A DNA stretch of 64,000 bases, from sequence record LC768462.1. One strand, 5' to 3'. A program made the translations under genes and the position numbers. This DNA comes from Escherichia phage phiEc_1. The notes beneath the pieces were generated by a model. The model saw only the letters and a program-made list of their open reading frames with translations. It was not told the DNA's origin and made no database searches. Shown piece after piece: positions 25,814 through 27,127 of this stretch; position 1 is the stretch's first letter; the number at the start of each line of letters is the position of its first letter.

Positions 25814-27127
25814 ATGATTGTTATCCCGATTAACCGAATTGAAGATAAGGTTGCTCAACAACCCGATATTACTGTTGGTCGTCACTTCATTGAACAATTA
25901 ATTGACAACAACTTGATTCCAGACGGTATTTGTCCTATCATTACTGGTGGGGCTATTCGTGATGCTGTGCTTAATAATATAGCCCCACATGACATTGATA
26001 TCTTTATTGTCAGAGGACAAACACCAAGAACTCAAAATACTTTCGTCCCAACTGAGCGATGGCAAATGCTTGGACGGGAGATTGAAAGTAACGTGAAGGA
26101 ATGGCTTGAGTCACAAGATATTGAGTATTCATCTCTTCTTGCTGAGGCTACAAACGAGTCCTATGCTGGGAGTTCTCAATTAACATTCACTGATATTATT
26201 GAATTTCAGTGGAATGGAACCCGCATTCAATTCATGTTTAACTATCCTACTTCTATTGAAGAGGTGTTGGATAATTTCCCTATGATGTGCCGTGGTGCGA
26301 TGACTATTGATAACTTGTTCATGACCAACCATGGGTATTTGGCTATGACCGCCCCTTGTCCAGTGGTTGTTTCTAGTCGTGAAATCCGATATGTCCACAA
26401 GAAGTGGCCCAATTCTCAGGTATTGAGGTTTTCATCTCCATCGGTTGCTCATCAATACATGGCCCAAACTCGATATCTTCCCACACCTCAACCAGTTAGC
26501 CAACTAGTCAACGAACGAGGTCAGGTTGCTCTTATTGAGGATACAACAAGTGCTCAATATTGTGTTAACCGAGACATGAGTCTATTCTTTGGAATCCCTT
26601 ATGAAGAGATTCTGTTAATGTCAAGCGTTCACGGGTCTGGTCAGATTCGTGCGTATTGGTCTGAAGGGTTAACAAACCTAACGACTAACACGGGTGGTGA
26701 TCTGCTTGGTCGAGAAGAGGAGCCTAACCGACACAATGCAATTGAAGGGGTGTTTGTAGCCCCTGCAATGCGTCGAGCACAAGAGTCACGAAGAGTAAGC
26801 CCTACTCGTAGAACATCTTTTGAAGAAGCTCTTGGTATCACAAGTGATTCTATGGAGAGATGGATGGCTAGTCCTTCTCGTGGTCGACCAAACGGCTTAA
26901 CTATTAGCGCACGTCAGTTCTCTGGTCAGGGTTTTGCTGTTGGTGATATCAACGCCCCTTCTCGTGTTATCTGGACTGATGAAGGTATGGAACAAGATTT
27001 AGGAGATAGTCTCGCTGATCGCTTTATTGCTAACAACCCTGAAGTATTAGAACCTCAAACCCGTACAGTTCGGTTTGCCGATGAAGCGGGTCGTGGAATC
27101 TCTTTTGACATGGAAACAAATAACTAA
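25814..27127 (+). CDS. nucleotidyltransferase, CCA-adding enzyme / poly(A) polymerase-like head domain
   Basis: ITGGAIRDAVLNNIAPHDIDIFIV matches GGxVRD...DxD of class-II tRNA nucleotidyltransferases; ATG 25814 in track frame. Confidence 0.5.
   Translation: MIVIPINRIEDKVAQQPDITVGRHFIEQLIDNNLIPDGICPIITGGAIRDAVLNNIAPHDIDIFIVRGQTPRTQNTFVPTERWQMLGREIESNVKEWLESQDIEYSSLLAEATNESYAGSSQLTFTDIIEFQWNGTRIQFMFNYPTSIEEVLDNFPMMCRGAMTIDNLFMTNHGYLAMTAPCPVVVSSREIRYVHKKWPNSQVLRFSSPSVAHQYMAQTRYLPTPQPVSQLVNERGQVALIEDTTSAQYCVNRDMSLFFGIPYEEILLMSSVHGSGQIRAYWSEGLTNLTTNTGGDLLGREEEPNRHNAIEGVFVAPAMRRAQESRRVSPTRRTSFEEALGITSDSMERWMASPSRGRPNGLTISARQFSGQGFAVGDINAPSRVIWTDEGMEQDLGDSLADRFIANNPEVLEPQTRTVRFADEAGRGISFDMETNN

Follow-up and report, generated by a model that had tools for sequence, protein, structure and literature searches.

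The gene at positions 25,814-27,127 (+ strand) of a 64,000-nucleotide (nt) stretch of Escherichia phage phiEc_1 (LC768462.1; the whole stretch is hereafter the window) encodes a 437-residue nucleotidyltransferase that, on profile comparison, is a divergent member of the known phage Gad2 family and, by the defining sequence features of class II tRNA nucleotidyltransferases, is not a CCA-adding enzyme. The original prediction, made from the letters alone, had read the protein as a CCA-adding-enzyme-like nucleotidyltransferase that could repair tRNA 3′ ends damaged by host defence nucleases, and had kept a nucleotidyltransferase with another substrate as a fallback. The fallback is the better reading, and the closest relative with a studied function is the anti-Gabija protein Gad2. 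The open reading frame (ORF) was correctly placed between an exonuclease gene and a dCTP deaminase gene (PF01612 upstream, PF22769 downstream). The annotation as a nucleotidyltransferase is itself not new: PHROG 12715 ("nucleotidyltransferase") matches the protein end to end (E 3.6e-241), and the ORF is the same gene as the RefSeq coding sequence (CDS) PQC56_gp081 'nucleotidyltransferase' of phage MN03 (NC_070990.1; Kuravirus, Gordonclarkvirinae), to which nt 25,000-28,000 of the window are 99.9% identical.

An exhaustive profile search of 1.84 billion cluster representatives (clusters at 50% identity) recovered 876 family clusters at E <= 1e-3, of which 136 reach E <= 1e-10. Stand-alone proteins of 180-230 amino acids (aa) make up the majority, and a subset of 274-482 aa carries an N-terminal MIxIP segment like that of the phiEc_1 protein together with a variable tail. 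For the comparison with Gad2 itself we used the authentic protein of phage SPbetaL7 (ORF_159 in supplementary table 7 of the discovery preprint, without about the last residue). The family profile aligned with it over 111 columns (hhalign probability 97%, E 1e-10), spanning motif A, a Gln-bearing strand (LQMIHF) and an FD..C motif (FDFTVCM). In the precomputed Pfam assignments, where E between 1e-5 and 1e-3 is marked weak and an unmarked match has E <= 1e-5, 30 of 45 close homologues have an entry for PF26128 ("Gad2"); the match to a 96%-identical homologue is weak, and the matches to two relatives of ~200 aa (P0046 and P0047) are unmarked. These minimal proteins are also linked to the phiEc_1 protein by PHROG 1614 (E 2.1e-7) and by a five-sequence profile of Gordonclarkvirinae proteins alone. 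Run against 5.8e9 proteins, this profile returned few sequences, among them P0046 (E 3e-3) and P0047 (E 7e-3). Foldseek against viral models returned many short phage nucleotidyltransferases (E 2e-8 to 1e-4), and tblastn of a ~400-aa relative (P0161), a possible intermediate, against phages found nothing.

The two proteins share the core and part company elsewhere. Both are phage-encoded, both are of similar total length (~400 aa for Gad2), and both have the same core with the motifs in the same order (in Gad2, IIAGGAI-x-DVDIYF, the Gln strand and F-D/P-x-x-C), with Q139, F155 and C159 of the phiEc_1 protein as shared signature residues. Gad2 has GGAITS where the phiEc_1 protein has GGAIRD, and LQMIHF where it has IQFMFN. 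The C-terminal ~260 aa of Gad2 are lysine-rich and unrelated to the lysine-free, disordered tail of the phiEc_1 protein, and the genomic settings differ: an anti-Gabija locus in SPbeta-like phages for Gad2, a conserved replication operon for the phiEc_1 gene. Deletion of gad2 renders SPbetaL7 fully sensitive to Gabija, and a Brevibacillus Gad2 homologue is sufficient to block Gabija; SPbetaL7 Gad2 is toxic on expression and its AlphaFold prediction is that of a nucleotidyltransferase (10.1101/2023.05.01.538930).

The shorter PHROG 1614 proteins, such as Pectobacterium PP47 gp28, Ralstonia DU_RP_I gp11, Pseudomonas LKD16 and Emajogi gp22, have the same domain and share its usual position beside primase/helicase and DNA polymerase genes. 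They are ~170-230 aa long, lysine-rich and end at a K-Y-P-G-W motif. The clade of the phiEc_1 protein adds to this the N-terminal MIxIP segment, a helical extension and a long disordered tail, and differs further in a change of the FD-motif D to Pro, in strong lysine depletion and in being acidic.

We aligned Kuravirus, Nieuwekanaalvirus EP335 and Bas86-type proteins and found that the N-terminal ~215 residues are conserved (28-39% identity), with sequence and length diverging beyond recognition between genera thereafter. A first full-length structural model was poor, and aa 273-437 consistently had a predicted local distance difference test (pLDDT) value below 50. A second model of aa 1-290, built from 114 diverse homologues, was confident (mean pLDDT 92, predicted template modelling score 0.89). 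Its N-terminal part comprises a helix (17-31), a strand (39-44), the GG turn, a helix (46-53) and a strand (61-67) that carries D60 and D62; a long inserted helix (80-100), a hairpin (125-146) and a helix (148-153) follow; and the C-terminal part consists of short strands (161-170), helices 172-178 and 188-197, and the clade-specific helical extension (209-271). The predicted nucleotidyltransferase domain is thus folded to ~aa 205 and the helices run to ~aa 272. The original prediction had called the ~350 aa after the head unrecognisable, which holds only for aa 273-437, where no recognisable fold was seen and disorder is predicted. The model shows the alpha-beta-alpha-beta core, the G-[GS] turn before a helix and the [DE]x[DE] pair on the next strand that characterize Pol-beta enzymes, and in it the core (aa ~17-205) is of Pol-beta type, nearest to the head domain of class II tRNA nucleotidyltransferases. 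The combination that marks CD-NTases and cGAS-like enzymes (a GS-type motif, a caging C-terminal helical lobe and best structural matches to CD-NTases) was not found.

Motif A is intact. The class II pattern GGxVRD-x8-9-DxD is represented at aa 45-62 by GGAIRDAVLNNIAPHDID, and the segments ITGGAIRD (aa 43-50) and DIDIF (aa 60-64), on which the original prediction was built, are present as quoted. All six frames of the window together contain a relaxed form of the pattern (GG..[RT][DS]-x6-12-DxD) a single time, at nt 25,946, and none of 200 shuffles contains it. All 114 family sequences have G45, D50 and D62, and each of G46, R49 and D60 is retained in no fewer than 110 of them. By motif, GG..RD serves the triphosphate of a nucleoside triphosphate (NTP) and D60 and D62 serve two metals, and this near-invariance implies two-metal nucleotidyl transfer from an NTP or a deoxynucleoside triphosphate (dNTP).

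Beyond motif A, family-specific residues stand in for the class II motifs. In phiEc_1 numbering the family signature reads G45-G46-x-x-R49-D50; D60-x-D62; Q139; F155-[D/P]156-x-x-C159-[K/R]160; K197-[YFW]-P199. Gln139 is Q in 102 of the 114 sequences and also in authentic Gad2; our own motif alignment places it where E. coli CCA (...EEYALARTER) has a Glu, the putative third-carboxylate position. At the motif B position the protein has L-D-N-F-P, with N-F-P in place of RRD; the family consensus is F-[D/P]-x-x-C-[K/R] (FDFTVCM in Gad2, FPMMCR here), in which the D of the FD motif is an invariant Pro across the clade of the phiEc_1 protein. K197 and P199 are kept in 97 and 92 of the 114 sequences, respectively. 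The correspondences for motifs B and D come from our alignment anchored on E. coli Cca, because HMMER and hhalign failed to extend the CCA alignment past motif A.

It is improbable that the protein is a bona fide, or even a minimal, CCA-adding enzyme that repairs the 3′ ends of host or phage tRNAs damaged by defence nucleases. The family profile does match CCA enzymes and nothing else in the PDB (E 2.6e-8), a name of the 'class II CCA-adding enzyme' kind is used in the SU10 paper (PMC4281155) and in one metagenomic record, and the short T7-like homologues are widely labelled tRNA nucleotidyltransferase. The likeness to the class II head noticed in the original prediction, however, stops at the head. 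HMMER and hhalign align only 27-40 residues with CCA enzymes (the N-terminal helix plus motif A); against E. coli Cca the family profile reaches an hhalign probability of 60% (E 8.8e-5, 27 columns) and the clade-only profile 9%. The hidden Markov model search proposed as a check, against Pfam PolyA_pol (PF01743), gave 17.8 bits (E 0.0044), below the gathering cut-off of 23, with relatives scoring 13.5-21.9 bits or not at all. No NCBIfam model, CCA models included, matched the protein, and a single-sequence search of PDB sequences gave chance matches only.

The modules that define class II enzymes are also lacking. RRD, which reads the ribose 2′-OH (residue 90 of E. coli CCA), is absent from the protein and from 110 of the 114 family sequences (present in 4), and EDxxRxxR, the amino-acid template for CTP and ATP (EDPLRVLR at residue 130 of E. 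coli CCA), is absent from the protein and from 113 (present in 1). The Gad2-type family cannot specify C, C and A by the class II template. A Pfam scan and the predicted structure revealed no neck, body or tail domain for tRNA docking and nothing folded after ~aa 272, and no PolyA_pol_RNAbd-type or tRNA_NucTran2-type region was detected. By contrast, RRD, EDxxRxxR and the neck, body and tail are all features of class II tRNA nucleotidyltransferases and bacterial poly(A) polymerase I (PF01743; PDB 3aql, 1miv, 4wby and 1ou5). A stand-alone CCA-enzyme head exists in Streptococcus pneumoniae (NP_344798.1; PDB 2la3), but it is bacterial and scores below the full class II enzymes. The phage does encode a tRNA, as had been noted; this sole tRNA, Arg(TCT) at 9,457-9,532 (+), has its 3′ CCA encoded in the genome, and E. 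coli already possesses Cca as a repair enzyme.

We tentatively favour, with confidence a little short of even, an active, template-independent Gad2-family nucleotidyltransferase that protects the replicating phage from nuclease-type defence and whose acceptor is not a docked tRNA. Such an enzyme would hold the NTP triphosphate at GG..RD and two metals at D60/D62 of the retained motif A, with Gln139, F-[D/P]-x-x-C-[K/R] and K-[YFW]-P replacing the CCA modules (RRD, EDxxR, body and tail) and, in the clade of the phiEc_1 protein, a helical extension and a 165-residue lysine-free disordered tail added. Probably made together with the replication proteins by co-translation, it would carry out untemplated nucleotide transfer to an acceptor, though not to a tRNA that it specifically recognizes. 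Candidate acceptors are a nucleic-acid 3′ end, for which class II enzymes offer a precedent; a DNA end, suggested by the replication context and by the end sensing of Gabija; and a defence protein, for which MntA is the precedent. By this transfer the phage would be guarded during replication against a nuclease-type defence of the host, in the way that Gad2 counters Gabija. The analysis shows the fold, the conserved catalytic residues, the family relationship, the lack of the CCA-enzyme modules and the place in the operon, and expression is shown for the orthologue in phage SU10; we infer the enzymatic activity, the counter-defence role and the acceptor.

Several observations pull the other way, on both the family assignment and the function. 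With the clade-only profile the link to Gad2 drops to 42 columns (probability 67%, E 5e-5), so that the assignment is partly transitive through the minimal family. The PF26128 match on Kuravirus proteins is only weak in the sense given above, and outside ~110-150 residues there is no similarity to Gad2, the C-terminal regions being unrelated. Transfer of function from Gad2 across so large a family (876 clusters) is uncertain. The mechanism of Gad2 was listed as unknown in February 2026 (PMC12904381), and our literature search found no experiment that set a Kuravirus against Gabija and no biochemical characterization of a Gad2-family member. An orthologue occupies the same position in ~97 phage records, all of them Escherichia or Shigella Gordonclarkvirinae, and comparison of the 97 records with a protein match with the 98 with a DNA match puts the gene in essentially all Gordonclarkvirinae. 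It behaves as a conserved, syntenic core gene of the replication operon. Counter-defence genes are usually accessory.

Because the gene behaves as a core syntenic gene in Gordonclarkvirinae, a role as a core enzyme of replication or nucleotide metabolism, making untemplated additions to DNA ends or primers or modifying DNA covalently, stays in contention, although we regard it as rather unlikely. The gene lies in a tight, conserved operon in the order primase/helicase, DNA polymerase exonuclease subunit, nucleotidyltransferase and dCTP deaminase. The single nucleotide between the stop codon of the exonuclease subunit and the ATG, together with the lack of a clear Shine-Dalgarno sequence before ATG 25,814 when the junction is read directly, suggests that the nucleotidyltransferase is translationally coupled to the exonuclease subunit. 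Distant homologues are likewise found beside replication genes. In Ralstonia phage DU_RP_I the order is primase, homologue and DNA polymerase I; in Vibrio phage 1.253.O the homologue adjoins a 5′-3′ exonuclease; in Vibrio phage VP506 it stands between ThyX and a primase/helicase; and in Pseudomonas phage Emajogi the nucleotidyltransferase gp22, for which the name "Gad2 family" is used in related phages, adjoins the primase/helicase (2026 preprint). The loss of RRD would be compatible with use of dNTPs.

The restriction behaviour of these phages points in the same direction. The second BASEL paper describes dCTP deaminase and the nucleotidyltransferase as a conserved pair, and its authors speculate on DNA modification because Gordonclarkvirinae are strikingly resistant to restriction, pointing to this pair for the unusual resistance to restriction-modification (PMC11990801). 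DNA modification has, however, not been demonstrated in these phages (PMC11990801). The short T7-like relatives usually carry the label "tRNA nucleotidyltransferase", and their genes sit between those for primase/helicase and DNA polymerase. These genes are accessory, occurring in 37 of 46 Pectobacterium Autographiviridae but in only ~60 of >500 others (PMC7693777), which argues against a general part of the replisome. Position alone is weak evidence, because host-takeover genes are also found in the middle-gene region of such phages. We know of no DNA-modification pathway that uses this fold in this way.

A view that joins replication to defence, and that we hold to be improbable, takes the Gordonclarkvirinae clade as a replisome-coupled offshoot of Gad2 acting on phage DNA 3′ ends, nicks or primers. 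It is drawn from the coupling to the exonuclease, the change of the motif-B Asp to Pro, and the gain of a lysine-free, acidic, disordered tail with its aromatic-x-x-G motif. The offshoot would add untemplated (deoxy)nucleotides or nucleotidylate an attacking nuclease, and could thereby be one reason why these phages broadly resist restriction enzymes and other nucleases.

We assign a low probability to a host-takeover toxin of the MenT or AbiEii kind, which would block translation or RNA metabolism in the host by adding tails to its tRNAs or to other RNAs. SPbetaL7 Gad2 is toxic, and Emajogi gp22 is cytotoxic at high induction (2026 preprint), but toxicity appeared only under strong over-expression, and Gabija is still blocked by a Gad2 homologue that is not toxic. 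MntA-type antitoxins and MenT/AbiEii toxins belong to other subfamilies of the superfamily; they show no specific sequence or structural affinity to the phiEc_1 protein and score well below class II heads, MenT-like folds far below, and no cognate antitoxin-like gene is evident beside the nucleotidyltransferase.

Least probable by our reckoning, and very much so, is a catalytically dead scaffold, in which the head is kept for its structure and the disordered tail binds a host or phage partner. Purifying selection on the tail, its conserved short motif and the Gln at the putative third-carboxylate position would fit such a protein. Invariance or near-invariance of the triphosphate and metal residues of motif A in 114 diverse sequences is nevertheless hard to explain without catalysis.

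The tail itself (aa 273-437) has a basic middle and an acidic end, and contains 18 Arg but not a single Lys. From genus to genus its sequence is hypervariable, yet within Kuravirus the ratio of non-synonymous to synonymous substitution rates is 0.11-0.14, compared with 0.08-0.11 for the core (aa 1-215). This purifying selection marks the tail as functional, and it is probably disordered. At its start an aromatic-x-x-G motif recurs across the clade (here YWSEGL, aa 281-286).

Lysine is scarce throughout the protein: of its 437 residues only 4 are Lys (0.9%), whereas 33 are Arg, and the net charge is -18. Of the 33 ORFs in the window that reach 150 aa, just one has a lower lysine fraction. The tailed clade as a whole has 0.4-3.1% Lys and is almost entirely acidic; lysine is not depleted in the ~200-aa relatives (5-11%) or in Gad2 (10.8%). 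The depletion might reflect shielding from a lysine-directed modification, and the parallel depletion in the amidoligase/ATP-grasp cluster upstream hints at a possible lysine-directed protein modification from which the phage's own enzymes would be shielded. We set aside DNA mimicry by an acidic protein, as the charge is not extreme for a protein of this length, and dropped the acidic isoelectric point as an argument against RNA binding, since E. coli Cca is itself mildly acidic.

The amidoligase/ATP-grasp cluster belongs to a large early group of predicted peptide- or amide-bond enzymes at 13,673-23,251 (+). Its members include a COOH-NH2 ligase, an Amidoligase_2 protein, a glutamine amidotransferase-like protein, a gamma-glutamyl cyclotransferase and a protein annotated as ribosomal protein S6 glutaminyl transferase. 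Three ORFs of the cluster (14,883-15,854, 17,277-18,380 and 20,934-22,130, +) have 2.0-2.8% Lys, and a late-region ORF (54,182-55,216, -) has 0.6%; most other ORFs in the window have 4-9%. In the distant Vibrio phage VP506, which has a nucleotidyltransferase homologue, an ATP-grasp gene also lies nearby.

To a specialist, a divergent member of a mechanistically unsolved family is not surprising. Nevertheless, an entire subfamily of E. coli phages that feature in therapy studies conserves this expressed enzyme; mass spectrometry found the SU10 orthologue among the products of early genes (PMC4281155). The usual "CCA-adding-like" label is misleading, and the present assignment can be used for re-annotation. 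Placement in the Gad2 family ties the gene to one of the few counter-defence proteins for which an enzymatic mode of action is assumed. The relatives Bas86-Bas92 infect E. coli K-12 derivatives and so provide an entry point for experiments on a family of ~900 clusters. Should the role prove linked to replication, it could be relevant to the way in which these phages resist restriction. Coordinates of the gene, its predicted regions and its operon neighbours are collected in Table 1.

Table 1 Features of the nucleotidyltransferase gene and adjoining genes in the phiEc_1 window
Feature	Position (nt)	Strand	Details
Nucleotidyltransferase CDS	25814..27127	+	437 aa + stop; ATG at 25814, stop at 27125-27127; PHROG 12715 match full length
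Predicted nucleotidyltransferase core, class-II-like head fold, Gad2 / PHROG 1614-type	25814..26458	+	aa 1-215
Motif A	25937..26005	+	aa 42-64, IITGGAIRDAVLNNIAPHDIDIF; GG..RD + D60/D62
Beta-strand RIQFMFNYPTS with family-specific Gln139	26219..26251	+	aa 136-146
Putative equivalent of class II motif B	26255..26302	+	aa 148-163, IEEVLDNFPMMCRGAM; ..DLKRRDLTINALA in E. coli CCA
Helix REIRYVHKKWP with K-[YFW]-P signature	26375..26410	+	aa 188-199; putative motif D position (EDPLRVLRVARF in class II)
Clade-specific helical extension (predicted), H209-220, H247-259, H263-271	26438..26629	+	aa 209-272
Predicted disordered tail	26630..27124	+	aa 273-437; 0 K, 18 R
Primase/helicase	23471-25261		Same operon, upstream
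DNA polymerase A 3′-5′ exonuclease subunit	25255..25812	+	Directly upstream; PF01612, E 1.3e-8
Gene junction	25801..25816	+	Exonuclease-subunit TAA 25810-25812, 1 nt before ATG 25814; sequence read directly
dCTP deaminase	27137..27670	+	9 nt downstream; PF22769, E 3.6e-34

The surroundings of the gene hold further features. The family A DNA polymerase is split, with the PF01612 exonuclease subunit separated by ~8.6 kb from a PF00476 polymerase protein at 34,409-36,217 (+). Directly 3′ of dCTP deaminase lie three small genes in tandem (27,671-27,868, 27,868-28,077 and 28,077-28,286, +) encoding proteins of 65, 69 and 69 aa. They are paralogues with 25-27% identity, a common TR..AR..K motif and a C-terminal Tyr, and none matched Pfam. 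A closely related metagenomic Kuravirus contig (L010) has an HNH_3 homing-endonuclease gene (7,862-8,371) inserted directly after dCTP deaminase; the window has no such gene at the corresponding junction (27,670-27,671). The insertion fits the remark in the BASEL study that the locus is syntenic except for homing-endonuclease insertions. Further downstream, genes at 28,666-29,244, 29,816-30,145 and 30,161-30,817 (+) include a ferritin/Dps-like 'DNA binding protein' (a weak PF00210 match, seen on a homologue), a thioredoxin and the thymidylate synthase ThyX. T7 uses thioredoxin as a processivity factor, and a phage thioredoxin near a T7-like replication module recalls that arrangement.

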